Source of the DNA: Dictyostelium discoideum
Lineage: Eukaryota
Assembly: GCA_000004695.1 (NCBI GenBank)
Contig: CM000151.3
Location: 1,888,001 to 1,952,000, forward strand
Direction: 5' to 3'
Length of the DNA stretch: 64,000 nt
A program made the translations under genes and the position numbers. Positions 2,603 through 64,000 of this stretch are shown piece after piece (positions within the stretch are counted from its first letter, which is position 1; the number at the start of each line of letters is the position of its first letter). The notes beneath the pieces are model-generated. The model saw only the letters and a program-made list of their open reading frames with translations, made no database searches and had not been told where the DNA came from.

Positions 2603-5522
2603 AACTATTATTATTGCTACTATTGTTGTTGCTACCAAAACTATTGCCACTATTATTATTATTAATTGGGATTGGAATAGTTGATTTTGAAATTGGAGTT
2701 TTCATTGCATCATTTAATTTTTCAATAATTTCAATATCATCTTCATCTTTGATATTTACAAAGTAAGAACCTGGATTATCAAAAGAGGAACCAGATTTAT
2801 ATTCACCATCCATACCAATACCATTAGAGGGAGAGGTACTAAAACCACCACTACCATAACCATCTTGAATTCTTGGGGAGATATTTTTTCTTTTTTCAAA
2901 TTTAATAACCTCACCTACTGGGTAATCTTGATCGAAAAAGTTAATTTCACTACCACCCTCCATAGAGTTTGAAGAGACAGCGGGTGAAACTGAATTTGAA
3001 GATCTAAATGTAAATTGAGGTACACCCCAGATTGCACGAATCTCTTGACTATGTGTTGTAATTTCAACATTATATAACCATCTTGCTTCTTGATCTTTTG
3101 ACATGTGATGTTGGAGTTGTTGTTTATTAATCTCTGTTAAACTATATGGAATGAATTGACTTTTGTATTCTGGTGATCTAGTTTTTCTACAAACATCCCA
3201 TTCAGCCACTGGTGTGATTGAAAGGCAAAGAGTATTTTCGGCCATTTCTGATGAGATTGGTGGACGTAGTGGTCTAAGTTCATAGAGAATCAATTGACCA
3301 GTTGGAGAGCAAACGAATAAATTCTCTAAATTTGGTTGATTAGATTCAATGAAACAAGCATTACCACCAGACATTAAACAACCTTGTACAACACTACCCA
3401 AGGTTGAAGAGGATGCTTCATCATTATCATTTCCTAATTTAATTCTATCCATTGCATTAATGGTTAGCAATGATGGAGTTAGGTTATTAACCGATGAATA
3501 ATAATCAATTGGTCTCTTACTATTTGGACTACGAGTTATATGAGAATGAATATCAACTTCACCACCTAATGGATTAATTGCAAATATATGTGTTGTACCT
3601 CTAGATGTTGTTAATGCTACCCATTTACTATTTTCACTTGTTGTAATACCTTGAATCGATGCATTTGTAATACCACGTTTTAAAATATAAATATGTCTAT
3701 ATGATTGTTCAAAATTCATTGAACTATTATTATTATTATTATTATTACTACTAATGATTATACCATTACTGTTATTACCACCATTATTATTTATTATATT
3801 ATTATTTGTATTATTATTTGTGTTATTATTACTATTACCGCTAACTATAATACTATTATTATTTGTTGTATTATTGCTATTATTTGTATTATTATTTGTA
3901 TTATTATTATTATTATTATTACTATTTAAACTTAAACTATTATTAATTATAATACCACTATTATTACTATTATTTATATTATTGTTATTATTGTTATTAT
4001 TACTATTTACACTTGTTGATAATGGAGATGATATAGTTAAAGAATTTGTAAATGGTATAATTTGATAAGTGTTTACTTTTGTACCTTCGGTTGTACTTGT
4101 AAACAAAAGTGTACCAGTTGGATCAAAAGCCAAATAAGAGATTGGATGAGTATGAGGTGGTTTAATGAGTGAAACTATTCTTTGTTTCACAAAATCAAAA
4201 ACAACAATAACACTTGCTGCATCTGGTTTATCGTTCATTCCACCACTACCACCACCACCCAATTGGGGTGCATTACCCATTGCCAACGATGATGTAGAGT
4301 TTGGACTTGTACCTAAAATTGATTGCTCATGATTTTCTGGATATAAATAACTTGATACTTTTTTTCTACCAATATCACCAAAATAATATAATTTCTGTGC
4401 TACCTCTTTTGCAATATCACTGGCAACATCGACTGCTGTATCACTAAAGGTTTGATTTTGTGGTACTGATGGATTACGATTTTGACTATATCCAATACCA
4501 CCACCACCACCGCCACTACTACCACTACCATTACTACTACCACCACCAAAGTAATGACTTGAGTGATGATGACCACCAATGAATGAATAGGATGATTCAT
4601 AATCTGTATATGCAATCCAACGAGATCCCAATGCAATTACACCCAATGATGTTACACTTGGATAACAAGGTAATGATAATCCTTTGATTTTACTCATATC
4701 ATTGGCATTAAATCCTACAATTCTCTCTTTTAACACCACCAATATAATTTGTTGATTCGATAATACATTATAAATTGGTGACTTAAATTTGTACATACTA
4801 ATTAATTCTGTTGTTTGTAATGAAAATATTCTAACCATATTTTTTGTAACTTTTGGATTATCTTCACCTGAACTAAAAAAAATTAAATAATAAAAATAAA
4901 AAAAATAAAAAAAAAAGATTAGTATTTTTTTAATATATATATATATATATATATAAAACAAAAATTAACACATACACAACAGCTAATAATGGTCTTTTAC
5001 CATAAAATGATGATGATTCATTATCAGGTTCTAAAGGATTTGTTAAAACCTTACAAAATTTTGTAAGTCCATCTCTACATGATAACAATTCCTTAACTCC
5101 ATCTGTATGATTTAAATCCCAAACTTGAAAACCATTATTATAACAATTTATTAAAATTTTATGTCTTAAAAATGAATAATTTTTTTTTTTTTTTTTTTTT
5201 TGTATTTAATAAAAGAAATAAAATAAAATAATTAATATCCTCCTTTTTTTTAAAAAAAAATATATATATAATTTTATATTTACTTTTCACCTTGAATAAA
5301 ACATTCATCAAAATAAGTACCAACTATAGTATCTTTTTCTTCAAATGTTACAGGTGAATTCATAATTTGTTTCTTTATTGATGATTTAATACTACTTGGA
5401 ATGTAGGATGAAATACCTTTAATATAACCTGTAATTACGGATTGATTAAGATAATTGGTTTTCTCCTCTGCTTTCATTCCTCCATAACCTGAATTTGTAT
5501 GATTTAATGCATTTTGGTACAT
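1671..5522 (-). CDS. BCAS3 (breast carcinoma amplified sequence 3) orthologue, WD40/BCAS3-domain autophagy-associated protein, about 1209 aa. Exons: complement join(5284..5522, 4976..5164, 1671..4872)
   Basis: Exon 1 ends caa ggt gaa aa|GTAAAT. Exon 2 translates HKILINCYNNGFQVWDLNHTDGVKELLSCRDGLTKFCKVLTNPLEPDNESSSFYGKRPLLAVV. Exon 3 carries KSPIYNVLSNQQIILVVLKERIVGFNAN...IALGSRWIAYTDYE, PISYLAFDPTGTLLFTSTTEG, WVALTTSRGTTHIFAINPLGG, LFVCSPTGQLILYELRPL and VEITTHSQEIRAIWGVPQFTF. These align block by block with human BCAS3 ([80 protein letters not shown]). Exon lengths are phase-consistent (239, 189, 3202 nt). Long Asn/Thr/Ser/Gly low-complexity inserts are present. Confidence 0.85.
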
Positions 5523-6597
5523 TGTTTTTATTATACTTTTGTTGTTATTATTGTTGCTGCTGCTGCTGCTTTATTATTATATTATTACTGTGGCGCTACT
5601 ACTACTACTACTAAACTAAACTAATCTAACCAAACTACAACTAAATTTTATTTCCTTCTGTTGGATTTTGGAGTGAGTGACCTATTTGTTTGTTTGTAGT
5701 ATGAGAGTGAGTTGATATTTTTTTTTTTTTTTTTTTTTTTTAATTTAAAAAATAGTGTTATTTATTTGACTGTTTTTTATTACTATATTATTAATTGTGT
5801 GTGTGTGAAAATTTAAAGAATTGAAAAAATAAAAAAAAATTAAAAAAGAAAAAAAAAAAAAAAGAAAAAAATAAAATTAAAAAAAATAAAAAAAAAAAAG
5901 AAAAAAAATTGAAAAAATGTTTTTAAGATAATGTGAGTTTATTATTATATAATTAACACTATATACGTGTATTACTATTATTATATTGTTTTTATTTTAT
6001 ATGAAGTCCAAAAAAATTAAGTTTGGAAATTTAAGAAATTTAATTAAAAAATAAAAAAAAAATAAGAGGAAAAATAAAAAAAAAATTATAAAAAATTTTT
6101 TTTTGAAAAAATAAAAAAAAAAAAAAATTAAAAAATTAAAGAAAATATCAAAACAATCCAATCAATGATTGGGTTGCCACCTCTTTTAAAGTTTTGTAGA
6201 AAAAAAATAAAAAAAAAAAAAACAATAAAAAATAATAAAAAAAAATAATAAAAAAAACAATAAAAAATAAAAAAACAAAAAGAAAAAAAAGGCAAAATGA
6301 AAATTTTTATTTTTTTTCAAATAATTTAATTTAATTTAACACCTGTTGTGTAGTTAATATGAAAATATTAATTATTTTTATTTTTATTTTTATTTTTTTT
6401 TCAAATAATTTAATTTTTTTTTATTTTATTTGGGTTTAATTTAATTTTTAAATAAAAAAAAAAAAGGCATGAAATTTTTAAGGTTTGAATTAGAAATTAA
6501 TTTGGGTAAACCCAGATTATAATTTTTTTTTTTTTTTTTATATATATTATTTTTTATTTTTATTATTTTTTTTTTTTTTTTTTTATTATTATTTTTT

Positions 6598-8277
6598 TTA
6601 ACCCTGGAATTCATTTTCTATTTTCGTAATTGATTCATATGGAATGAAATGAATTCCTTTCTTTAAATAAGATTCCATTTGATGATATCTATCTCTCCAT
6701 TCAGAACTTGAAGTGAATAAATCTTTATGTTGATTTACAAGTGTTTGAATGATACAAAATTTCCATTCCTTTGCCAATTTTGTAGATTCATTTTGTCTAT
6801 TCATCAAGTATTCAAAGAAACCAGCCATTTTAATGACTTCAGAAGCACCCCATGAATGAACACATAATGCTTGAATTAATGAAAAGCTTGCCATTTTTAT
6901 ATCCTCAATTGGTGAGTTATAATTCTTTGTCATCTTTGACATTAGTAAACCATCTGGTAGGGATCGATAAATTTGATAAAGTTTATCAGACACTAAATAA
7001 ATCTTGTCATTTGGTTTCAACATTATTGAGAATGAATTATAACTTGTCACGATTGTCTCTTGATCATTTGATAAAAAGAATTCAGTATATGATCTAACAA
7101 ATGATTCATCCCTAATTATTAAATCCAATCCTTTAGAATTCTTACCAATGATACCAATTGATGCTAAAATTGTCATTTTCAACTTTCTAGATAATTCATT
7201 CTCTGAATGATTCAAATGATATTTAAATATCTCTATAAACTTTTTACCATATTCACCATTAATAAAGAATAACATCTCTGTCTTTTCATTTGATAATTGT
7301 GATACATTTGCTAAAAATGATATAATTTTATTTAAAATTGGTGATTCTGATAAAATATCACTACTACCACTACCATCATCATTGGTGGTGGTCGTTGTTG
7401 TTTTCTTAAAAATTTCATATAATGAATTTATCATACCAGAATTAATAATTGATTGTAATGCAACAGTGTATTTACACGATTCTTGAATGATTTCTAATAT
7501 ATTCATTTGAGTGATTTGATCTTTACCTGTAGAATCATTGAAAGCTGATACTAGTATACTTATGAATGGTTCTCTATATTTTTTAAAAACTTGTTCATTA
7601 TATTCCTCCTCTTCTTTTGAGATTGATTTTGTATTTGAATTAATAATTGATGGATCTATTGAACTGTTACCAATTGAATGATTTGGTTTGAGTGTTTCAA
7701 TTTGTGGTACACCAACACCTAAACTATTATTTGTATTCGACTCTTCCAAATTCAAATTTAAATTCAATAATAGTGAACCAATTACAAGAATTCTAAAAAA
7801 TATAACCTTATTTGAATTTGCTAATGAATATTGTAATACTAATTTTTTAAATGTTTCATTAAACCAATCGCTTTTCTCATCATTATTCAATAGGATAGGT
7901 TTATTGTATTTTTTATTTGATATTATTGTTGTGAATAAATCTATTACTGCTTGTGAGATACTGATAGAGTCAGAGGTGATTTGAGTGAAAACTAATTGTA
8001 AAATACCAGTCTCATTGAAATGTTGCATTGTAATCTCTGGATTCTTCTTTATTGCCATATTTAACATTTTAATTGTAACTAATGCAACCTCGGTATGTAC
8101 TTCGCTACTACCACTTAAAGCAATCTTTAAATAAGGTTCTATCTCTTTAGTTACTAATAATTTATAACTATTAATATTATTTGTTAATGTTTTTTTAATA
8201 TTATAACAACAATCTAATAATTCATCTTCATTTTTACTATTTTTTAATTCTTCAAATGATTTAATTAATTCATTCAT
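6598..8277 (-). CDS. psmD5: 26S proteasome non-ATPase regulatory subunit 5 (PSMD5/S5b, proteasome assembly chaperone), 559 aa, single exon
   Basis: The C-terminal region AGFFEYLMNRQNESTKLAKEWKFCIIQTLVN...YHQMESYLKKGIHFIPYE aligns to human PSMD5 ([31 protein letters not shown]...YLRLRTYLSEGPYYVKP). An all-helical ARM/HEAT-like protein of matching length. Confidence 0.75.
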   Translation of the reverse strand: MNELIKSFEELKNSKNEDELLDCCYNIKKTLTNNINSYKLLVTKEIEPYLKIALSGSSEVHTEVALVTIKMLNMAIKKNPEITMQHFNETGILQLVFTQITSDSISISQAVIDLFTTIISNKKYNKPILLNNDEKSDWFNETFKKLVLQYSLANSNKVIFFRILVIGSLLLNLNLNLEESNTNNSLGVGVPQIETLKPNHSIGNSSIDPSIINSNTKSISKEEEEYNEQVFKKYREPFISILVSAFNDSTGKDQITQMNILEIIQESCKYTVALQSIINSGMINSLYEIFKKTTTTTTNDDGSGSSDILSESPILNKIISFLANVSQLSNEKTEMLFFINGEYGKKFIEIFKYHLNHSENELSRKLKMTILASIGIIGKNSKGLDLIIRDESFVRSYTEFFLSNDQETIVTSYNSFSIMLKPNDKIYLVSDKLYQIYRSLPDGLLMSKMTKNYNSPIEDIKMASFSLIQALCVHSWGASEVIKMAGFFEYLMNRQNESTKLAKEWKFCIIQTLVNQHKDLFTSSSEWRDRYHQMESYLKKGIHFIPYESITKIENEFQG

Positions 8278-8678
8278 TTCTTTATTTCTTTATTTAAATT
8301 ATTATGAATATAAATATAAAAAAAATAATAAAAAAAAAAAAAAGAAAAATATAAAGTTTTAGAAAGAAATTAGAAAAACAAATTTTCAAAAATATAAAAA
8401 AAAATTTTAAAAAAAAAAATAAATTTTAATTAAAAAAAAAAAAAATTAAAAAATATAAAATTTTTGCATTTTGTTGAAGTTGAATTTTTTTAATTTTTTT
8501 TTTAATTTATTTTTTTTTTTTTTTTTTTTTTTTAATTTTTTTTAATTTTTTTTTTTGACCATCACACTTTTAATATATTTTTTTATTTTTATTAATTATT
8601 TACTTTTTTTTCTTTTATTTATTTTGTACAATATAAATATATATATATATATATATACACCCACACACATACATAAAA
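8278..8678. promoter_or_regulatory. About 400-bp bidirectional intergenic region shared by the head-to-head psmD5 and psmD14 genes. Contains (AT)10 at 8641-8660 just 5' of the psmD14 ATG
   Basis: Both start codons face outward from this AT-rich spacer. The promoter function is inferred. Confidence 0.4.
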
Positions 8679-9200
8679 ATGAATCGTTCATTAATGTCAT
8701 TATTAGGTCGTGAAGGTTTAGGTGAAAAGATTACAGACGCTACACCTTTACCAGATACAGCAGAAACAATTCATATCTCTTCATTAGCTTTATTAAAAAT
8801 GTTACAACATGGTAAGAATATTCTATTTATTATTATTTTTAATATTGTATAAAATTAACATTTTTTTTTTTATTTTTTTTATTTTTTTTTTTTTTTATTT
8901 TTATATAGCAAGAGCTGGTGTACCATTAGAAGTTATGGGTTTAATGTTAGGTGAATTAATTGATGAATATACAATTAGAGTTATTGATGTATTTGCAATG
9001 CCACAAAGTGGTACATCAGTTAGTGTAGAAGCAATTGATCCAGTATTCCAAACTAAAATGCTTGATATGTTAAAACAAACTGGTAGAGATGAAATTGTTA
9101 TTGGTTGGTATCACAGTCATCCTGGCTTTGGTTGTTGGTTATCAAGTGTTGATGTCAATACTCAACAAGTATGTATACAATTTAAACAAAAATATATAAA

Positions 9201-9231
<31 letters not shown>

Positions 9232-9925
9232 CACTTTATTAATAAAATTTTGAAATAAATAAATAAATAAATAAATAAAAGAGTTTTGAACAATTACAAT
9301 CAAGAGCAGTTGCAGTTGTAGTTGATCCATTACAATCAGTTCGTGGTAAAGTTGTAATTGATGCATTCAGAACCATTAAAACTTCACCAACAGCAGAACC
9401 AAGACAAATTACAAGTAATCTTGGTCATTTACAAGATCCATCCATTCAAGCATTAATTCATGGTCTCAATAGAAATTATTATTCCATTGCTATCAATTAT
9501 CGTAAGAATGAATTGGAACAAAAAATGTTATTAAATCTTCATAAAAAGAAATGGACTGAAGGTTTAATCGTTGATAAATTTGATACTCATGAACAATCAA
9601 ATGAAAAACAAATTAATGTAATTATTATTTAAAATCTATATATAAATATATATATATTTAATTATTGACTTAACTTTAATATTAACATTTTTATTTTCAT
9701 TTTTTTATTTTATTTATTTTTATCTTAAAATAGAATTTATTGGAATTAACTAAACAATATCAAAAATCAATTCAAGATGAAGATAAGATTGAACCAGAAA
9801 AGAAGGAAGTTTCAGCAGTTGGTAAATTAGATCCAAAGAGACATTTAATCTCTGATGTTCACACATTAATGGCCAACAACGTTGTTAGAGTGTTAACTGT
9901 TATGCTTGACACTGTAACTTTCTAA
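8679..9925 (+). CDS. psmD14: 26S proteasome regulatory subunit Rpn11/PSMD14 (JAMM/MPN+ deubiquitinase), about 306 aa. Exons: join(8679..8810, 8909..9168, 9282..9617, 9734..9925)
   Basis: Near-identity to human PSMD14 over the whole length: [69 protein letters not shown], the JAMM motif [75 protein letters not shown], and C-terminal DPKRHL...MLDTVTF. Introns start GTAAGA/GTATGT/GTAATT, end AG, and phases are consistent. Confidence 0.92.
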
Positions 9926-10277
9926 AAAAAAAAAACTAAAAAACTAAAAAAAGAACTAAAAAAAAAAAAAAACAAATAAAAAAAAAAAAAAAAACAAATA
10001 AAATAAAAAAAAAAAAAAAACAAATAATTAAATTTTTTATTACTTTTTTTCAATCACCCCTTTTTAAAACCGATTTTTCAGTTGGAATTCAATTTATTTT
10101 AATTTAAAATTTGAATTTTTTTTTTTTTTTTTTTTTATTTTTTTATTTTCTAAAAAAAAAAAAAAATAAAAAACGAAAATAAAAAGTTTCAAATTTTTTT
10201 TATTTTCTTTTTTTATTCTTTAATCGTTCATACCCACTATCTCTTCTATATTCACATATATACATATACATAAAAAA

Positions 10278-11240
10278 ATGATGCAATTTTTTGGTACTAT
10301 CGTAACTAAAGAAGAACCAGTAAATCTTGAATTAGATGAAGGTGATATTTTCCATTTAACTAAAGTATGTAAAATAACTATTATACAATTATATATATTT
10401 TTTAAAAAGAAGAATTATTAACCAAACCTAATTTTCATTTTATTTTGTTTTTTTTATTTTACTTATTTATTTTTTTAATAGGCTATTATTCATCCAAAAT
10501 CTCAAGGTAAAGGTAAAGTTTATTTAACTGCAGTTATTAGTTTAATGGAAGAAGATGAAATGGAAGAAGATGATGTTGATGATGAAGAAGAATCACCAAG
10601 AGAAGATATAGTTGAAATTCCAATTGGTATTTTAGAAGCTGGTAAAATTGATCAAATCGATCTCAATTTACATTATAATTTTGGACAAATCGTTAGATTT
10701 GAACTCCAAGCTGAAAATGGTGCTGGTTATGTTGTTGCTCTTTCTGGTTCAGTTATCACCATGGAACAAGGTGGTTGTGATGATGAAGATTGTGATGATG
10801 AACACTGCATCAATCATGAAGATGATGAAGAAATCGATAGTGATGAAGAGTTCGGTGACTCTGATCAAGATGAAGAAGATTCCGATGATGAAGAAATCCC
10901 ACAATTAATTGCACCAGCCACTAAAAAAGGTAAAATCACAGAAATCTCAGAAGTCCCAGAATCAAAGAAAGAAAAAACTCCAGAACCAAAGAAAGTTCCA
11001 GAACCAAAGAAAGAACAAGTTAAACAACCAACCCAACCACAACAAAAGAAAGCTGCTGCTCAACAACCAGAAAAAGCCAACAATAAACCAGCCGCTGCTT
11101 CACCAGCTAAACCACAAAACAATCAATCTAAAAATGCACCAAAACAACCACAACAACAACAACAATCACCAGCCAAAAATAATAACAACAAAAGACCACA
11201 AAACCAAAACGAAAACAACAAAAAGAAACAAAAAAACTAA
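10278..11240 (+). CDS. Nucleoplasmin-like (NPL-domain) acidic nuclear chaperone-like protein, about 282 aa. Exons: join(10278..10364, 10482..11240)
   Basis: The N-terminus MMQFFGTIVTKEEPVNLELDEG...AIIHPKSQGKGKVYLTAVIS resembles the nucleoplasmin/FKBP39 NPL fold (MFWG...HISGVAL..KLYLAA). Poly-acidic D/E tracts are followed by a Lys/Pro/Gln-rich basic tail. No FKBP domain is present. The 117-bp intron runs GTATGT...AG. Confidence 0.55.
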
Positions 11241-11838
11241 ATAGTCAATAAATTTATTCTTTTAATATAACTTTTTTTTTTATTTTATTATTTTTTCCTA
11301 AATTAATAGATTAAATTGTTATAACCATTTAGATTTTATAAACATATCATCTTTTTATTCTTTTATTAAATTTTAATAACCTTTTTTATTTTTTTTTATT
11401 TTCCATTATTTTTTTGTCGGGAAAAACTAAAAATAAAAATATATTAAAAAACTATTTTTTTTTTTTTTTTTTTTTTTTAAAAAATATATCCCATAACCAT
11501 TTGAAAAGGAAAAGTACTTTAAGAAAGATTAATTTTCATATGAAAAAATTAACTTTTAATAATCGTGTTTTTGTGTACGGGCGTCTTGGGTACTAACTTG
11601 ACCTCCAAAGAAAAACACTAAGACCAAATCCTTTGGCTGATCATTTTGACTTTTTAATTGTCATTTGTTAAAACTCGTTGAAGGTATATTTTAAAAAATA
11701 AATTTTAAAAAAAAAATGTAATTGTTTATGTTATTATATTTAAACATTATCAAAATTATTACTTTTAAGAAATTCATTTTCTGGGTGATTGGAAAAAATT
11801 AAGAAGAATAACATGTTTATTCAATCAATAATGGTAAA

Positions 11839-11875
<37 letters not shown>

Positions 11876-11909
11876 AATAAATAAAAGATTCATTTTTAAA
11901 ATTTTATTT

Positions 11910-12961
11910 CTATTTTTTATTTATTGTTTTATTTTTTAGAGATTTTTTTTTTAATTTTTGACATTCTTGGATTAAATCTAATTGATAATTTGCAATTTCT
12001 TCAACTTTGTCTTTAATTAAATTTTGTTTTGAAGTAATTGATTTAAATTGATCTTTGATAGGAGATAAATCAAAATCAATTTTTAAATTTGCTTCCAACT
12101 TTTTGAATTCAAGAACCTTCTCTTTTAATTCATGATATATTAATTTTGTTGTTTCATCAGTTACTTGGGAGATTAGTTCTATATTTTCCATATAATAGGA
12201 AAGAAGAGATTTTAAAGTTTTCAATTTTTTATCTCTTGCTACTGATTGCTTGTAAAATGAAATAAAAGCACCAACAAGGCAACCAAATGTTAAAAGTACT
12301 GGAGCACAAATAGGCGCAACAACTGATAGTGAAGTGGCTCCTACAGCGATCAGAGACGTGACACCAACAGCTTCAGTAGCTCCAATCGCAGTTACACTAC
12401 CAATTCCTAAAAATCCTGATATTACCCCAAACAAAGATGAGAACTTGGTAAGAAATTGAGACTTTTCTGCTTTATCAATTCCTTGAAATAGTTTTTTGGA
12501 GTTTTCAAAAAAAACATCGATTTTCTTTTTTAATTCTTCATCATTAACATTTTTTTCAGTAAATTTATTTGTTAACCCATCTATATTTTTCAATAAGGGG
12601 TCGATAAGTTTATCAATCATTGAACTTATCTCTTTTATTTTCTCTTGGTCATTTGATTGAATTTCTTTTTTATTCTCCAAAGTTAGTCTTTCAATTGTAC
12701 TAATTTGAGATTCTAATACAATTATTTCCACATCAATTATATTAACCCTTGTACTAAAGCTTGTTAATAATTCATTTAATAAACTATTGTTTATTGACAT
12801 TTCGATCATTAATTTTTTTAAAACCAATTTTTCTTTATCATTTTGTTGAGTTAACATTGTTTTGATTTTATCCATTGAATCAAATGCGATTTGAAAAGCT
12901 TCTCCATTACTTTTTGTTTTGGGATCTGCTTTTTTAATAATTGTTAAAGAATTATTATTTT

Positions 12962-12965
<4 letters not shown>
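11910..12965 (-). CDS. Paralogue A: 351-aa helical protein with a central ~55-aa Gly/Ala/Ser-rich hydrophobic hairpin (GVISGFLGIGSVTAIGATEAVGVTSLIAVGATSLSVVAPICAPVLLTFGCLVGAFISFY) flanked by coiled-coil-like helical regions
   Basis: Intact ORF. Architecture: about 190 aa helical, 2 predicted TM helices with GxxxG/Gly-zipper spacing, about 105 aa helical. Same domain order as the divergent gene at 13589..14665. Confidence 0.6.

Positions 12966-13047
<82 letters not shown>
12966..13047. repeat. Uninterrupted poly(dT) tract of about 82 nt on the + strand (poly(dA) on the coding strand of paralogue A), abutting its ATG
   Basis: Read directly from lines 12961-13047. Confidence 0.9.
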
Positions 13048-13119
13048 TTGTTTATATAGTTATAATTTTTTATTTTTGAAAATTATAATTTAATTGTTTT
13101 GGTTGTTTGTATAGCAAAA

Positions 13120-13152
<33 letters not shown>

Positions 13153-13588
13153 TAAAAATTAATAAAAATAATTCAACACAATTTTGAGGAAAATTTATTT
13201 TTTGTAAAATACATTGACCTACCAAAATACCCAAAAAATAAATTGATGAGTTAAAAATAAAATTTTACCCACATATTCAAAATAAATAAATAAATATATT
13301 GTATGTTTTGTAAAATCCAACCAATAAAAAACATTTGCTAAGCAGAATACACAAAGTAAAAAAATAATTTGATAAGTTAAAAATAAAAATTCACCCACAT
13401 GCATTGTATTTTTTTTTTCAAGGCAAAATAACTTATTATTTTAAGAAATTTATAAATTTTACATTTATGTTATAATTGTTTTTGTTTTTATTTTTAATTT
13501 TATTTTTATTTTTTAATTTTTACATATTTTCATTAATATATTAATATAAAAATATATTTTTATAACAAGTAATTTCCTTTTTTATAAA

Positions 13589-14665
13589 ATGGGAAATAAA
13601 AATTCATTGGAACAAAGTGATGGTGCTGGTGATGGTGCTTGTGATTTAATTCCAGACTTTAAAGAATTTGACAAAGATGAAGAATTTGTAAATGTTGTTA
13701 AAAATTTTTTAATAGTTTGTGAAAAAATAATGAAAAAAGAAAATAAAAACTTTTTGGAGAATCAAAATGAATTAATAAAATTAATTTCAAAAACAATCAA
13801 ACAAAGTAAATATTTTGGGGAAATTTCATCAAATATTTCCAAAAATTTAATTAATATAAGAGAAAATTATCTATTGGTTGCCAAAAATCAAATAAATTCT
13901 TCAACAAATAAAGTAGTTAAAGCATTGGAATTAAAAATTGATATTGGAAAAGTGGTGAAAATGGTTAATGTTGGTAAAGATCTCAAAATTGGAGTGCCAA
14001 AATTAAAAGAGATACAATCACAATTAAAAAATTTTACTGAAAGAATTAATTCTCAAAAAGATAATTTATTTTATAAAAAATTAATTAAATTTTTTAAGTT
14101 ACAAGGCAAAATAGATGATAAAAAAAAACCTATTAGTTTATTTGTAGTTGGTGTTTGTAGTGTCCCAGCTGGAGTTATTACTGCGTCCGTTGTTATTACA
14201 ATAGGTTTGTCTGCCTTTCCATTTACAATTCCGGTTTCTGTTTTTATATTAGGCTGTGCAACAACACTAATTTGTTTAATAAATAAATCAATCAACACTG
14301 GTAGAATATATGATCAGTTCATTGAAACAATTAGTTTTATTTCAAGTCAACTAGAAGCTTTCATTTCTCATCTTTCGATTTGTGCAAATGATTTTTGTAA
14401 TGGCTTAACAAAAAGTCTTGAACTGCTAGAAAAATCGGATGACAAGGTTGTTTCAATTGAGCATGTGGATGCAAACATAAAAATAGTTGATAATATATTA
14501 AAAAAAATTCAAACAATTCAAACTCTTTCAAAACAATTGGAATCATATGAAGAATGTTTAAATGTTAAAGGTACAGGATGGAATTTCATGAGATCAATTG
14601 GATTTTCATCTCAATCACAATCCTCGTCACCAACTTCATCATCACAATCTATGGTTAAAAAATAG
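13589..14665 (+). CDS. Paralogue B: 358-aa helical protein with a central hydrophobic hairpin (LFVVGVCSVPAGVITASVVITIGLSAFPFTIPVSVFILGCATTLICLI). Starts MGNKNS, an N-myristoylation consensus
   Basis: Intact ORF. Domain order is helical, TM hairpin, helical, as in paralogue A. The two genes are divergent and 623 bp apart. Confidence 0.6.
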   Translation: MGNKNSLEQSDGAGDGACDLIPDFKEFDKDEEFVNVVKNFLIVCEKIMKKENKNFLENQNELIKLISKTIKQSKYFGEISSNISKNLINIRENYLLVAKNQINSSTNKVVKALELKIDIGKVVKMVNVGKDLKIGVPKLKEIQSQLKNFTERINSQKDNLFYKKLIKFFKLQGKIDDKKKPISLFVVGVCSVPAGVITASVVITIGLSAFPFTIPVSVFILGCATTLICLINKSINTGRIYDQFIETISFISSQLEAFISHLSICANDFCNGLTKSLELLEKSDDKVVSIEHVDANIKIVDNILKKIQTIQTLSKQLESYEECLNVKGTGWNFMRSIGFSSQSQSSSPTSSSQSMVKK

Positions 14666-14749
14666 TATTATCACACCAAACAACTCCAATTATAAAATTT
14701 TAATAATAATTCTCTTGAAAATAATAGAAATAATAATAATAATAAATAA

Positions 14750-14786
<37 letters not shown>

Positions 14787-14879
14787 AATAAATTCTTATT
14801 GTTTAATTTTTATTTAAATCTAATTAACTTTTGAAATTACAATTTCGCAAATTTTATTAATATCTCTGATAAAACTTTT

Positions 14880-15950
14880 AATTTACTTTGAAAATGTAAA
14901 ATATTGGATTTGAAGATGAGATTGAGGATTCATTATTACTTATACAGCTGTGTCATTTGTATGGGGATTATTTCTTTTGGTTGAATCAGCAAAATTTAAA
15001 TGTTGACCAAATATAAATTTACCACCTAATCTTCCATAGGATGCTAAAATTCATAATGGTTATCTTTCTTCAATACCCAACCAACGACGACGACGACGAC
15101 GATGACAATGATTGGGTTGTATAATTTTGTTGTTTACTAATTAATTGAAATTGTGACCATAGGTCTTCTTGATAAGATTTACCACCAGTGATGATAAAAT
15201 TTGCTCTAAAATTATGTTTGCTAACCCAATTCCAATCAGAAGGTACACTATCAGGGTTATCATTTATAATTCTCTTTTTTAAATCTTACTCTCCCTTCAT
15301 TAATTAAAAGATATGGTGGTTCATTTGGAAATGAAATTTCATTCGATGAGCCAACTTTTAATTCTCTATGTGATTCTAGTGATTTTCTAACCCAATAACA
15401 TCTTTACCTATAGATTGATATAACCATTCACTAATATTATCAATATTACCACTACCACCACTACTACCACTAGTATTTGAGAAATCTTAATCGCCATATA
15501 ATAAACCATCAACTTTATCACCACAAACTTGAATTTGATCAAAAGCAAATATTGGATAATAAGATAATGGTATTGATAAAAATTTCACCTCTGGTGCAGT
15601 TAAAATTAATTTATCATTAATTAAATCGATTTCAGGTTTGAATCAATACTAAAATTGGTAACTTTTTTTGATTTATATAATTGCCTACCTGTGAATCCTT
15701 GGCACCAAAATTTTCTTACATTAAATAAATCTGTAATTTGTTAGTGATTTCAATTTTATACAAACACTTTGATTATAGTCTCTACAATTCATTCCAAAAT
15801 AACCATTTCCTCTATAGTATCTTGATGAATTCTACCATACATTTTTAAATTATCAATTAATTTATAATTTATTTCAATTTCATTATTATAGTTGTCATCT
15901 TCATTTTCTTTAATTTATGGTAATAGAAATTGAATATGAAATAAATTTAA
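14880..15950 (-). pseudogene. Decayed protein-coding remnant. Non-low-complexity, coding-like sequence with frame changes and stops, and no ORF of 60 aa or more
   Basis: Minus-strand translation gives protein-like stretches ([40 protein letters not shown]; [56 protein letters not shown]). These are interrupted by TAA/TAG/TGA and frame switches. No AT-rich GTAAGT...AG introns separate the blocks. Composition is less AT-rich than the flanking intergenic DNA. Confidence 0.35.
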
Positions 15951-16182
15951 AATTTATATTAGAATTCTATAGTAATTTATTAGAATGAATCCATTAACAT
16001 TATTTATATAATAATAGAATAACAATCAGAAAAAGTTTAACTAAATATTTTTTATTTTTTATTTTTTTTTTTTTTATTTTTTTTTTTTTTTCACCTTTTT
16101 TTTTTTTTTTTTTTTTTTTTTTCAGTATCAATGCCCGTGTGTTTATAATAACACAGTCAATAATAAAAAAAAGGCAACAAAA

Positions 16183-16375
16183 ATGAATATACCAAATTTT
16201 ATAATACCGTGTGAAGATTTAATAAATAAACTAATTGATATGTCAGCAGTTCCACTTGGCACATTACCACCAACAGTTTCATTAAAAACTGAAATTTTCA
16301 ATGGTATCTCAAAATTGGAAAATGTTATTATTCAATATGTAAATGAAATCTTAATTGAATTTCCTTTATTAAATG

Positions 16376-16442
<67 letters not shown>

Positions 16443-17965
16443 ATAGATAGATAAAAAAAAAAGAAACACACATATTAAAATATTTACTTTTTTTTTTTTT
16501 TTTTATTATTATTTTTTATTTTTTTTGCTAGGAATTAGAACCATATATATTAGAACAAGTTGAAATTTTAATTGATAGATCAAAATATTTTTATAGTTTA
16601 GGAGAAGTTAATAAAACAGCTAAAGATGTTGAATTCATTATAGATAATTATAATTTACTTTTTCAAAATACAACAGATCCAACTGTTTTAAAAAATTTAT
16701 TTAAATCAGTATTAGGTAGAGTTTGTTCAACACTTAGAAATAAATCAAAAGCAATAAATTATTTAAATCATTCAATTAAAGCATTTCATTCAATTCCAAT
16801 CGTTCAAGATTATTTATCAACTTGTATTATACTTGGTGATAAAACTGATGATTTATTCTTTAGTATAATAATGGATGATAATAATAATAATAACTCATCA
16901 ATAACAATCAATAATAATAACAATAAAAATAAAAGTAATAATAAAAATAAAAAAGATAATTATAGTAAAAGATATATTAGAGAAGAAGATTTTAGATTTG
17001 ATACAGATTATGATGTTAGACATTCAGATGACGATGACGATGACGATGATGATGAAGATTATGAAGATGAAGATGAAGATGATGAATTTGAAGAGGATGA
17101 AATATTAAATGATGATGATTACTATTTTAAATCACAAGAAGCAATAATTAGATCATATAAATTTAATGACAATATTAATTATAGTTTAAAGAATGAAGAT
17201 TTTGATAACTGTGGTGATAATGATAGTGGTAATAATAATAATAACAATAATGCAACAACAACCTCTCCAACAGTAATTAAACCATTTAGTATTGGTACAA
17301 TTAATAAATTTCAAATAATTGAAACACCATCACTATCAACTGTAATAAAGAAATCAAATAATACTTTAATATTATTAGAGATGGTTAAAACATTATTAAA
17401 AAATATAAATGGATTAATATTGATTAATATTGATTTCAACGTTTCAACAATCGATGAAATTGAAGAACAAATCAATTATTTCATAACAGTAAAGCAATTC
17501 TTTTCAAATCAAATATTATTAATTTTTACAAATTGTAAATCTTCAAAAGATTCTGTTGATTTTATTGAATTCTTTAAAAAGAAACTATTATCTTCATCAT
17601 CAAATAATACCAATAATAATAATAATAATATTAATGTAGAAATACCACCAATTTTTATGTATGAACATCATGTTAATCAAATTAAAGAATATATGTAAGT
17701 TTATTTATTATTATTATATATCTTTTTTTTTTTTTTTTTAAAAAATATTTACTTACATTTTATTTATTTTTTTAGATTAAAATTTAAAAATTTCCCAGCT
17801 AGTCCATTTAAAAAGAATAATTTAAGTAATATGTTTAATGGATTAACAGTTGATCAACAAAATCAAATGGACAGATTACAACAAGAACAACAAAGAAAAC
17901 AACGATCACAAGAAATTGATTTTGATATTTTAGATAAAATTAATAAATTGGATTTAAATAAATAA
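16183..17965 (+). CDS. Hypothetical protein, about 512 aa, with a poly-Asn N-region and a D/E-rich acidic tract. Exons: join(16183..16374, 16532..17695, 17776..17965)
   Basis: Exon 1 ends LLN|GTAAAT. Intron 1 contains the (TAAA)n microsatellite. Exon 2 is open in the same frame from 16532 through the ORF-track ORF 16871..17698. Exon 2 ends at|GTAAGT. Exon 3 is in phase after tttttttag and ends LDKINKLDLNK*. No recognised domain. Confidence 0.55.
16375..16450. repeat. (TAAA)n microsatellite of about 17 units inside intron 1 of the gene above, decaying to (TAGA)2
   Basis: Read directly. Confidence 0.9.
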
Positions 17966-18037
17966 AAAAAAAAAAAAAAAAAAAAAAAAAGATTTAAGAA
18001 TTATTATTTAAAATTTTATTTAATTTCTTTTTTTATT

Positions 18038-18688
18038 TTACCATAACTCTAAACCTAAAGTTTTTCTTTGTAATTCATTTAGATGATCAATATTAATTTT
18101 ATTCTTTTCAATAGATTTTTTAATTGATTCTTGTCTTCTTACTAATGTTTCTTTTGGAATTTGATCTGAACCAAACATTTTTAAAAACATTGCCATTCTT
18201 GGACGATGATTATTATTTGGTGATGAACCATGTAAAAGTTTTTGATTAAAGAGAATCAAAGAACCATGTCTAGCAGTGACTCTAATAGCTCTACCATATA
18301 GTGGATTACCAGGTTCAATACAAACGAAATTACTATGATAACCATATTGTTCTTTAATTTGTGCATTATTTAATGTCCATTCTTTAATGTGTGAATGGAA
18401 ACCTGGTACCACAATGAATCCACCATCTTCTTTTTTATTATCACATAAATTAATTAATGCTTGAATGTTTGTTACATTTAAATCAATGAATTCAGGTTGA
18501 TTATTTTCAATAAAGAAATCTTCGCCATTCTTATAGGTTAATGTTGAAAATACTTTTTTTCTATTATTATCTTCTTCATCCTCTATAAATGTGAATGGAT
18601 TTAAATCTAAATGTAAATTTTCAACTGTTTTCCATTTATTAAAATTTGATTCAACTATTGCTGTTTTTGTTTTTTCTGTTGATGTTAC

Positions 18689-18727
<39 letters not shown>

Positions 18728-19179
18728 ATTATTTGTATTTATATCTGTGGTTGTTGATGTTGATTCTTCAATACCATTATTAAACTGATGATCAGGTGTA
18801 ATATTTGGAAATGGTAATTTACAATCTTTAGTTGGTCTAAAGAAACCAAATCTATCATGATTTATATATAAATCTTTACGATTTAATAATGTTGAATAAA
18901 TTGAATAAATCTTTGGATTGGATCTATTGGCAATTGTAGTTTCAGAGAAAACTGGTGGATATCCAACTATTCCCTCTTGTGATAAATTTGGCCATACACC
19001 TTCCCAAGTTTTTGGATCATTTCTCTTTATTGTTTTCTCTTCTGATTTCATTGAATCATGATATGATGCCCATTTAAATGATTCAATATAATTCCAAATA
19101 TCATCTATAGTTTTTTGACATTCTGATTTACTTAAAACATCTCTAATTACAACAAATCCAAATTTATTAAAAAACTAAT

Positions 19180-19211
<32 letters not shown>

Positions 19212-19405
19212 GTTAATTAGTAATAATTATATTATATATATAATTAAATATTACATACTTCTGTGTATTCTGTTTGTTGCTCAACACTAAATGATGTAAT
19301 ATAACCTTCTACATCTTTTTGAACATCATAAATTGGTGGTAAATAAAGTGAATTATCTTTATATTCAAATGTTTTTTTAGTTTTTGAGGTTGTTGTATTG
19401 TTCAT
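18038..19405 (-). CDS. Phytanoyl-CoA dioxygenase (PhyH)-like Fe(II)/2-oxoglutarate oxygenase, about 427 aa, with a 13-residue poly-Thr insert. Exons: complement join(19259..19405, 18038..19174)
   Basis: Exon 1 reads MNNTTTSKTKKTFEYKDNSLYLPPIYDVQKDVEGYITSFSVEQQTEYTE|GTATGT. Exon 2 starts after ttattag with FFNKFGFVVIRDVLSKSECQKTIDDIWNYIESF..., the typical PhyH N-region. The C-terminal signature is GSLILFNQKLLHGSSPN...R. FIVVPGFHSH supplies a His/acid metal ligand. Exon lengths are 147 and 1137 nt, both phase 0. Confidence 0.75.
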
Positions 19406-19749
19406 GTTTCACTGTATTGAGAAAAAAAAAAAAAATATAAAAATAAAAAAAAAAAAAAAAAATTAATAAATCTAATTTTAGGAAGTGGGAAATAAAAAAT
19501 AAAAAATAAAAAAATAAAAAAAAAAAAAAAAAAAAAAAAAAATAAAAAATTTCAAAGAACCACTTACAAATTATTGATATACGTTGGCCACATGTGGAAA
19601 TTATTATTAATCTAATTTTATTCTTATAAGAACATATCACTAAAAACATCTTCATATTGATCTTTTTCTTTTGAAACTTTTTTATTAACTACTTCTTGAC
19701 TTGCACTAATTTCATCATAATTTTCAATTGATTTCCTTTTCTTTTTTAA

Positions 19750-20490
19750 TTAATTATCATCATCTTCATCTTCATATTCTTCTTCTTCTTGATCTTTATA
19801 TTGATCTTCATCTTCATCTTCATCTTCACTATTATCATTTTTGTTTTTTTTTCTTTTTTTATTTTTATTTTTATTTTTATTTTTTTCATCTTTTAAAAAT
19901 TTTTTTAATTCTTTTTTCTTTTTTTTAATATTACTATAATTTAATAATTTTGAACATAATGGGCAAAGTACAACTTTAACTAATGCAACTTTATTTTCAT
20001 TTAATTCATTATATGAAAATGGTACTTCAAAACTTTTTAAATCATCCATTTTATTGTTATTGGTAGTAGTTGAGGAAGAGGTAGAAGAAGAAGATTCACA
20101 TTTTTTATTTGCACAAGTGAATTGACCACGACCCATAATCACTTCGGATTCAATTCTCCAACGTAGACCAATTTCACCACTTTTATATCTTGATAAATCA
20201 ATGATTGCATACTCTTTATATAATCTATCGTAATAAGTTTTTGCTAATTTCTCTTCCCATGTTAATTGATTAATATCTTCGTTTTCATTTTCATCCCTTA
20301 AGAATTGATGATTCTCTTTTAAAACTTGATAATCTGTTTTAAAATTTTTATATTTATCTTCTGTTTGTTGCTGATTCTTTTTATTATTTTTATTATTCTT
20401 TTGATTTAAATAATTTTCAATTAATTTCTTATGTCTTTCAACTGCATCTAATTTTTTTAATAATTCATATTGTTCTTTATTTATTTCCAT
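19750..20490 (-). CDS. FRA10AC1-family nuclear protein, 246 aa
   Basis: Core block YYDRLYKEYAIIDLSRYKSGEIGLRWRIESEVIMGRGQFTCANKKC matches the Fra10Ac1 domain (YDRLFKEYCIADLSRYKENKFGFRWRTEKEVISGKGQFVCGNKHC). The C-terminal K/E/D tail is typical. Confidence 0.7.
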   Translation of the reverse strand: MEINKEQYELLKKLDAVERHKKLIENYLNQKNNKNNKKNQQQTEDKYKNFKTDYQVLKENHQFLRDENENEDINQLTWEEKLAKTYYDRLYKEYAIIDLSRYKSGEIGLRWRIESEVIMGRGQFTCANKKCESSSSTSSSTTTNNNKMDDLKSFEVPFSYNELNENKVALVKVVLCPLCSKLLNYSNIKKKKKELKKFLKDEKNKNKNKNKKRKKNKNDNSEDEDEDEDQYKDQEEEEYEDEDDDN

Positions 20491-61613: not shown

Positions 61614-63836
<2,223 letters not shown>

Positions 63837-64000
63837 TTTTAATTTTTTAAAAAAAAATATATTTTTGTGATTAAAAAAACAAAAAATATAATAAATTAAA
63901 TGATTTCTGTTATTAGAAAAATAATTAAAAAAAAAAAAAAAAAAAAAAGAAAAGAGAGAAAAGAAAAAAATGAATAGAAAAAGTAAAAAAATATTAATAT

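Follow-up and report, generated by a model that had tools for sequence, protein, structure and literature searches.

The ClyA family of α-helical pore-forming toxins is defined by a five-helix bundle (α1, α2, α3, α6 and α7) together with a membrane-active α4–α5 region, comprises one-, two- and three-component systems, and shows sequence identities of only 15–45% between its members (PMC6162564). These toxins (ClyA/HlyE, Cry6Aa, XaxAB/YaxAB, NheABC, Hbl, AhlABC/SmhABC and MakABE) are elongated helical bundles of 300–400 residues with a hydrophobic, Pro-containing hairpin at one tip, located about 55–65% along the chain, and the components of multi-component members are encoded side by side by genes of weak mutual similarity (PMC6162564). 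Here we describe a pair of divergently transcribed genes, DDB_G0272716 (hereafter A) and DDB_G0272714 (B), in a window of Dictyostelium discoideum AX4 chromosome 2 (the whole 64-kb stretch of DNA that was analysed, with a G+C content of about 22%; Table 1), whose predicted products resemble the ClyA-family toxins in overall layout and in the position of the hairpin, and which, like the genes of multi-component toxins, lie next to each other. In contrast to the toxin genes, A and B are eukaryotic, single-exon and AT-rich, and no bacterial relatives of them were found. Moreover, the toxins are secreted and attack membranes from the outside, whereas the A/B pair has no signal peptide or other export signal and carries an N-myristoylation consensus, and, unlike in ClyA, no amphipathic N-terminal helix is predicted in either protein.

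A eukaryotic precedent is provided by the hemolysin E-like (hl) genes of Drosophila ananassae, which form a lineage-restricted, rapidly duplicating family with a ClyA-like predicted fold (PMC11731912), as A and B do. However, the hl proteins have a recognisable hemolysin E domain and signal peptides, act as secreted humoral factors and have been attributed to horizontal transfer, none of which applies to A and B. Type III translocators of the AopB/YopB/IpaB class are also helical proteins with a hydrophobic hairpin, as is A, and the best of the exclusively non-significant matches in sequence-profile searches of the PDB was AopB, which aligns with residues 141–211 of A (E = 0.28) and is the only match over the hydrophobic region besides weaker ones to transhydrogenase subunits (E 3.7–4.4). 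Unlike A and B, these translocators are bacterial, chaperone-bound and injected through a needle. In the intracellular apolipoproteins APOL1–6, a hydrophobic hairpin lies between a helical N-terminal domain and a C-terminal helical/leucine-zipper region; most of them have no signal peptide and act on membranes from the cytosolic side, and they share with A and B both the order of elements and the absence of a signal peptide.

The open reading frames (ORFs) of A and B are identical to the annotated proteins, which are described only as hypothetical or as 'transmembrane protein', and the lengths, coordinates and head-to-head arrangement across 623 bp that had been reported in a first-pass annotation of this DNA agree with the annotated genes. 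No further copies or pseudogenes of either gene were found elsewhere within the window, and their gene identifiers and accession numbers are not mentioned in the searchable full-text literature or in Dictyostelium transcriptome and chromatin immunoprecipitation supplements. Each protein has one central hydrophobic segment (residues ~174/185–238 in A and 181–232 in B), which reaches about 2.25 on the Kyte-Doolittle scale (19-residue maximum) in both proteins and is bordered on either side by Lys/Arg-rich flanks and by predicted helices, in agreement with the helix/hydrophobic segment/helix layout described at first pass. The Gly-zipper spacing that was likewise ascribed to both proteins is present in A, with two strict GxxxG and nine small-xxx-small motifs in the segment, but not in B, which has no strict GxxxG and two small-xxx-small motifs. 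Comparisons across the family were based on nine members, five of A and four of B. Within the segment of A, E198 is invariant in all five orthologues, and in a joint alignment of both families the Gly and Pro of the turn region (G209/P218 in A, G206/P215 in B) and a Ser immediately after the segment (S241 in A) are invariant throughout. The extreme N-termini are predicted to be disordered (residues 1–19 in A and 1–29 in B), and in B the predicted helical N- and C-terminal regions are followed by a Ser-rich disordered tail.

Neither protein has a signal peptide, as judged from the hydrophilic N-terminal sequences (MENNNSLTIIKKADPK and MGNKNSLEQSDGAG) and from the central segment being the sole hydrophobic stretch. 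B begins with MGNKNS and, as the first-pass annotation had recognised, fits the N-myristoylation pattern PROSITE PS00008, used here in the context G-{EDRKHPFYW}-x(2)-[STAGCN]-{P} with Gly2 behind the initiator Met. The same pattern is matched by the three other B orthologues and by A of D. dimigraforme, with the hexapeptide itself identical in all five sequences, and it is not matched by A of AX4, which starts with MENNNS and lacks Gly2, or by the three other A orthologues, all of which start with ME. Since A of D. dimigraforme starts like all four B proteins, the A lineage probably began with the same putative myristoylation signal, Gly2 having been lost in the D. discoideum/D. cf. discoideum branch.

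AlphaFold2 (AF2) models of the two proteins were built from one shared nine-sequence alignment and are therefore not independent of each other. The model of A, which has a mean predicted local distance difference test (pLDDT) value of 73 and a predicted template modelling (pTM) score of 0.64, contains helices at residues 20–97, 107–137, 142–185, 217–288 and 301–350 and displays four long helical stretches, the second and third of which enclose the hydrophobic segment, residues 181–220 being of low confidence. The top 50 Foldseek matches of this model in the PDB are enriched in ClyA-family members, among them Hbl-B, ClyA in both pore and monomer form, AhlB and AhlC, SmhB, Hbl-L1, XaxB, NheA and MakA. 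Fold matches of the B model include the ClyA pore (12.6/224), Hbl-B (11.5/224), Cry6Aa (11.2/236), Hbl-L1 (11.0/219) and NheA (10.9/215), and further AhlC, SmhA, YaxB, XaxA and PaxB, all ten ClyA-family entries lying within the top 30. For both models, alignments of more than 200 residues with natural proteins are almost exclusively to members of the ClyA family. The tongue of E. coli ClyA (AYAGAAAGVVAGPFGLIISYSIAAGVV, residues 177–203) is Gly/Ala-rich with a central Pro, and its relative position in the chain (0.64) compares with hydrophobic maxima at 0.63 in A and 0.54 in B. The membrane-active element of the ClyA family is situated between α4 and α5 at the tip of the bundle, and the hydrophobic segments of A and B between the second and third long helices; like the tongue, they are rich in small residues (Gly/Ala only in A) and have a conserved central Pro. 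The first-pass annotation had compared the layout with ClyA/Hbl/Nhe-type toxins, apolipoprotein L and the Bcl-2 core; the fold matches and the tongue position are in line with the first of these, while the listed fold matches include neither an ApoL nor a Bcl-2 protein, the ApoL domain (PF05461) has no Pfam match at E ≤ 10 in any member, and the hallmarks of Bcl-2 proteins, a compact globular fold in which about eight helices surround a central hairpin together with Bcl-2 homology (BH) motifs, were not found.

From these models, and from the conserved hexapeptide and the maintained divergent arrangement and rapid evolution of the intact genes described below, we tentatively propose that A and B may be cytosolic ClyA-like bundles with an inserting hairpin, of which B would be myristoylated, and that they may permeabilise or remodel membranes. 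According to this proposal, the two genes would form a lineage-restricted, fast-evolving module, each product being an elongated, mostly α-helical bundle with a hydrophobic helical hairpin of 50–65 residues at one tip. Both proteins would be synthesised in the cytosol, because neither has a signal peptide, and B, and ancestrally also A, would be N-myristoylated and thus attached to a membrane from the cytosolic side. Insertion of the hairpin would follow, with both helical arms remaining cytosolic, because both of its flanks are Lys/Arg-rich, and the inserted proteins might self-associate, or A might pair with B, through the long bundle, which would lead to permeabilisation or remodelling of the membrane rather than to an enzymatic or receptor role. 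Membership of the ClyA family is not claimed for either protein.

Several observations weigh against this proposal. The model of B, albeit with the same order of elements as that of A, is weak (pLDDT 54, pTM 0.47), and the hairpin has a pLDDT below 50 in both models, the nine-sequence alignment being shallow. Four long helical traverses are predicted, compared with the five-helix core of the ClyA family; no Foldseek match in the PDB reaches E ≤ 1e-3, TM-scores are only 0.2–0.38, and designed helical bundles score as high as the toxins. Pfam, PDB and profile searches detected no sequence link to the ClyA family, ApoL or any other family. ClyA-family proteins are exported and act on foreign membranes, whereas B has a cytosolic N-myristoylation consensus. 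At about twice the length of the ClyA tongue, the hydrophobic segment is also hydrophobic enough for a transmembrane hairpin constitutively inserted into the endoplasmic reticulum. Furthermore, searches of the literature and its supplements retrieved no expression, localisation or activity data for either protein, and the deletion of B from one lineage in which A is intact, described below, argues against an obligate A+B complex.

An alternative to which we give equal weight, and which we hold just as tentatively, is that A and B are constitutive hairpin-anchored membrane proteins, in which a permanent transmembrane or monotopic hairpin is inserted co-translationally, the long antiparallel arms make up a stalk in the cytosol that serves to scaffold, tether or shape membranes, as in the HR1-TM-TM-HR2 arrangement of mitofusin, chlamydial Inc proteins or Mic10-like hairpins, and no pore activity exists. 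The likeness to toxins would then be generic to helical bundles, and indeed unrelated bundles such as CorA/Mrs2, SPX, spectrin, BDLP and designed proteins score close to the toxins. Such an anchor would be consistent with the very high hydrophobicity across 52–65 residues, with the Lys/Arg-rich flanks on both sides, with a myristoylation signal in the absence of a signal peptide, and with the name 'transmembrane protein' that UniProt gives to both A and B. The invariant E198 and the many Gly residues in the first hydrophobic helix of A also point in this direction; oligomerising transmembrane hairpins often keep Glu and Gly in a hydrophobic helix. The near-exclusive alignment of both models with ClyA-family members among long natural matches is less readily accommodated by a simple anchor, and housekeeping scaffolds are rarely so lineage-restricted, fast-evolving and variable in copy number.

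A bolder form of the tentative pore-former proposal, which we regard as unlikely, is that A and B constitute an endogenous, cytosol-facing and lipid-anchored two-component α-pore-forming or membrane-rupturing system of social amoebae, the ClyA-like fold of which arose independently of the bacterial toxins. Such a system might be used against vacuolar or cytosolic bacteria or in developmental (stalk) cell death, and B might be dispensable or modulatory. Eukaryotic ClyA-like genes are already known from Drosophila, where the products are secreted, and for either form of the proposal the novelty would lie in a cytosolic, myristoylated version without detectable homology. If both the fold and the membrane activity were true, the pair would represent a eukaryote-born, cytosolic and myristoylated counterpart of the ClyA architecture with no detectable bacterial ancestry, which would bear on the origin of pore-forming folds by convergence or ancient descent, and on the poorly known membrane-damaging effectors of amoebal cell-autonomous immunity and cell death in a genetically tractable organism. 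If the proteins were instead inert, hairpin-anchored scaffolds, A and B would be an ordinary pair of orphan membrane-protein genes.

The relatives of A and B were sought with two single-sequence searches and one profile search of 5.8 billion proteins, and with a full HMMER scan of 1.84 billion cluster representatives. Relatives among proteins were recovered only from Dictyostelium, namely from D. discoideum, D. cf. discoideum and D. dimigraforme together with short fragments, and scans of metagenomic, viral and prokaryotic contigs yielded none. As these searches recovered no relatives outside Dictyostelium, there is no sign of horizontal acquisition. A Pfam search of all nine members at E ≤ 10 returned nothing relevant, with no ApoL, Bcl-2, HlyE or HBL domain. 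These data bear on the possibility that A and B truly belong to the bacterial ClyA/Hbl/Nhe superfamily, whether through horizontal transfer or very ancient descent, and have diverged beyond sequence recognition. The enrichment of this superfamily in the fold searches, the low identities within the family (PMC6162564), the Drosophila hemolysin E-like genes as a eukaryotic precedent (PMC11731912) and the two adjacent components, reminiscent of bi- and tripartite toxin loci, would all agree with such an ancestry. It is nevertheless improbable, given that none of the nine members matches Pfam HlyE or Bacillus_HBL at E ≤ 10 and no sequence relationship to the family was recognised, that hhalign against E. 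coli ClyA gives a probability of 0.2% and hence no signal, that the cluster representatives yielded only Dictyostelium sequences and the prokaryotic, viral and metagenomic contigs nothing, and that a recognisable conserved domain and signal peptides have been retained in the Drosophila genes, neither of which is found in A or B.

The relationship between A and B themselves is also distant. BLASTP aligns them with E = 0.64, a HMMER profile of one family scores the other no better than segment-shuffled decoys, and profile–profile comparison with hhalign gives a probability of 31% (E = 5e-4), mainly over the hydrophobic region. Semi-global A–B alignments compared with segment-preserving shuffles yield z values of 2.6–5.5, in which the N-terminal motif supplies most of the signal and the highest values belong to pairs with the D. 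dimigraforme A orthologue. The similarity is thus marginal, and paralogy is not established by sequence alone. A common origin is likely, however, because the two families share the invariant Gly/Pro of the turn and the Ser that follows the segment, as well as equal length, architecture, adjacency, predicted fold and the N-terminal hexapeptide. The first-pass description of A and B as paralogues is not fully confirmed, its main support being the shared architecture, predicted fold and hexapeptide.

The divergent pair is syntenic in three Dictyostelium lineages, on the RPN11/Proteasom_PSMB side, and the A/B spacer measures 439 bp in D. dimigraforme. In D. cf. discoideum, the entire pair is duplicated in tandem in the order A−, B+, A−, B+ (locus positions 4952–11092), the copies having 65–74% protein identity to each other and a ratio of non-synonymous to synonymous substitution rates (dN/dS) of 0.73–0.83, and one of the B copies (327 residues) lacks the Ser-rich C-terminal tail. 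A further assembly labelled D. discoideum, GCA_054859385.1 (JBTAPF010000011.1), is only ~90–92% identical to AX4 at the nucleotide level over 12 kb (window positions 8000–20000), housekeeping neighbours included, and is probably a sister lineage, cryptic or mislabelled, and not a case of ordinary variation within the species. This assembly has an intact A gene, but tblastn finds no B, and a segment reaching from the promoter to beyond the end of B is missing (Table 1). Because B is present in both other species, its absence is a lineage-specific deletion.

Substitution rates were estimated by the method of Nei and Gojobori. Values of dN/dS range from 0.42 to 0.73 for A and from 0.43 to 0.83 for B; against D. 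dimigraforme, dN amounts to 0.34 for A and 0.37 for B, compared with 0.005–0.10 for the flanking genes, and against the closer genomes it is three to four times that of most flanking genes. Judged by these values, A and B are real, intact and functional genes that evolve fast under weak purifying selection, and their fast evolution explains the narrow detectable distribution. As is typical of effector or toxin-like genes, A and B combine high dN with changes in copy number and with presence/absence variation. These properties, along with the conservation of the divergent pair and its duplication as a unit, would also suit a conflict or recognition module, that is, a toxin–antidote or kin-recognition pair with one membrane-active partner and an adjacent gene whose product neutralises or recognises it, in analogy to the divergently transcribed tgrB1/tgrC1 genes or to nematode peel-1/zeel-1. 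We consider such a module very improbable, since between the two D. discoideum-type assemblies A is as divergent as its flanks (91.6% nucleotide identity, compared with 89.5–91.6%), which leaves no locus-specific hyper-polymorphism, and dN/dS is below 1 throughout. A hyper-polymorphic, tgr-like recognition locus was rejected, as the 11% protein difference between these two assemblies mirrors their ~9% genome-wide divergence.

The conserved shared spacer suggests that A and B may be co-regulated. It contains a T tract of 81 nt, one less than the 82 nt given at first pass, which is longer than any other of the 30 homopolymer runs that reach 25 nt or more in the window and is matched by T-rich sequence at the corresponding position of the other D. 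discoideum assembly. The two direct repeats of about 40 bp with a common end, also seen at first pass, are 90% identical, both end in ACCCACAT, and show weaker similarity extending back to ~13196 and ~13302, respectively. AX4 and the second D. cf. discoideum pair each have two copies of a repeat unit of the form TTGATAAGTTAAAA...ATTCACCCACAT, and the first pair has one degenerate copy, which makes the repeats candidate conserved cis-elements. Outside this context test, the 64-kb window contains CACCCACAT only once, compared with 0.14 expected occurrences. The second repeat copy contains the CACCCACA box, whose complement, TGTGGGTG, we take to fit the G-box half-site of GBF. It also carries a GATAAG site, and Dictyostelium development is regulated by GATA-type factors such as GtaC (PMC4506546); neither A nor B was found in the supplements of that study. 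On the B side of the repeats lies a block that is conserved in each of the four A/B intergenic regions and may be a core promoter or regulatory element. In addition, the T tract forms an imperfect inverted repeat within the shared promoter with a nearby A-rich tract (13125–13152; 28 consecutive A within ~56 nt), the arms being ~56–62 nt long and 82–88% complementary; these are probably just two homopolymer tracts of an AT-rich genome.

Table 1. Positions of the A/B gene pair and associated features, numbered from the first nucleotide of the window.
Feature	Position	Strand	Remarks
Gene A (DDB_G0272716 / XP_644865 / Q86IJ0)	11910-12965	-	351 aa, single exon; ORF identical to annotated protein
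A hydrophobic segment (aa 174-238)	12252-12446	-	Gly/Ala/Ser-rich; predicted helical hairpin; AF2 confidence low here
Shared intergenic/promoter region	12966-13588	.	623 bp; head-to-head layout kept in D. cf. discoideum (two copies) and D. dimigraforme
T (dT) tract	12965-13045	.	81 nt; equals A80 directly upstream of the gene A ATG on its own strand
Direct repeat, copy 1 (TTGATGAGTTAAAAATAAAATTTTACCCACAT)	13233-13274	+	42 nt
Direct repeat, copy 2 (TTGATAAGTTAAAAATAAAAATTCACCCACAT)	13359-13400	+	42 nt; contains GATAAG site and CACCCACA box
Candidate promoter block (AAATAACTTATTATTTTAAGAA / AAATAACTTAWTATTTTAAGAA)	13426-13447	+	in 4/4 A/B intergenic regions of three species including D. dimigraforme, with small changes
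Gene B (DDB_G0272714 / XP_644866 / Q86II9)	13589-14665	+	358 aa, single exon; ORF identical to annotated protein
B N-terminus MGNKNSL	13589-13609	+	N-myristoylation consensus (Gly2, Ser6); PROSITE PS00008 match
B hydrophobic segment (aa 181-232)	14129-14284	+	Val/Ile/Thr/Pro-rich, no charged residues; turn motif G206-LSAFPFTI-P215
Segment missing from GCA_054859385.1	~13046-14975	.	most of promoter, both repeats, whole gene B and ~300 bp downstream

On the A side of the pair, a neighbouring ORF (10545–11240, plus strand) encodes 231 residues, the first half of which is very rich in Asp and Glu and the tail in Lys, Gln, Asn and Pro. Its syntenic orthologues (281–300 residues, no Pfam match) always lie between the A gene and the RPN11 (JAB) gene. 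On the B side, the ~1.5 kb at 14666–16182, up to the gene for a ~519-residue protein starting near 16183, contain no ORF of at least 60 codons and no match to an Rfam family or tRNA, and are 75–89% identical in the D. cf. discoideum locus and in the second D. discoideum assembly; this stretch might contain a multi-exon gene missed by the annotation, a pseudogene, or regulatory or non-coding RNA sequence. Finally, both ends of the window have a strongly positive GC skew (+0.33 at 1–2000 and +0.47 at 62001–64000, and within about ±0.27 elsewhere), which may stem from G-rich simple repeats or a repeat element.

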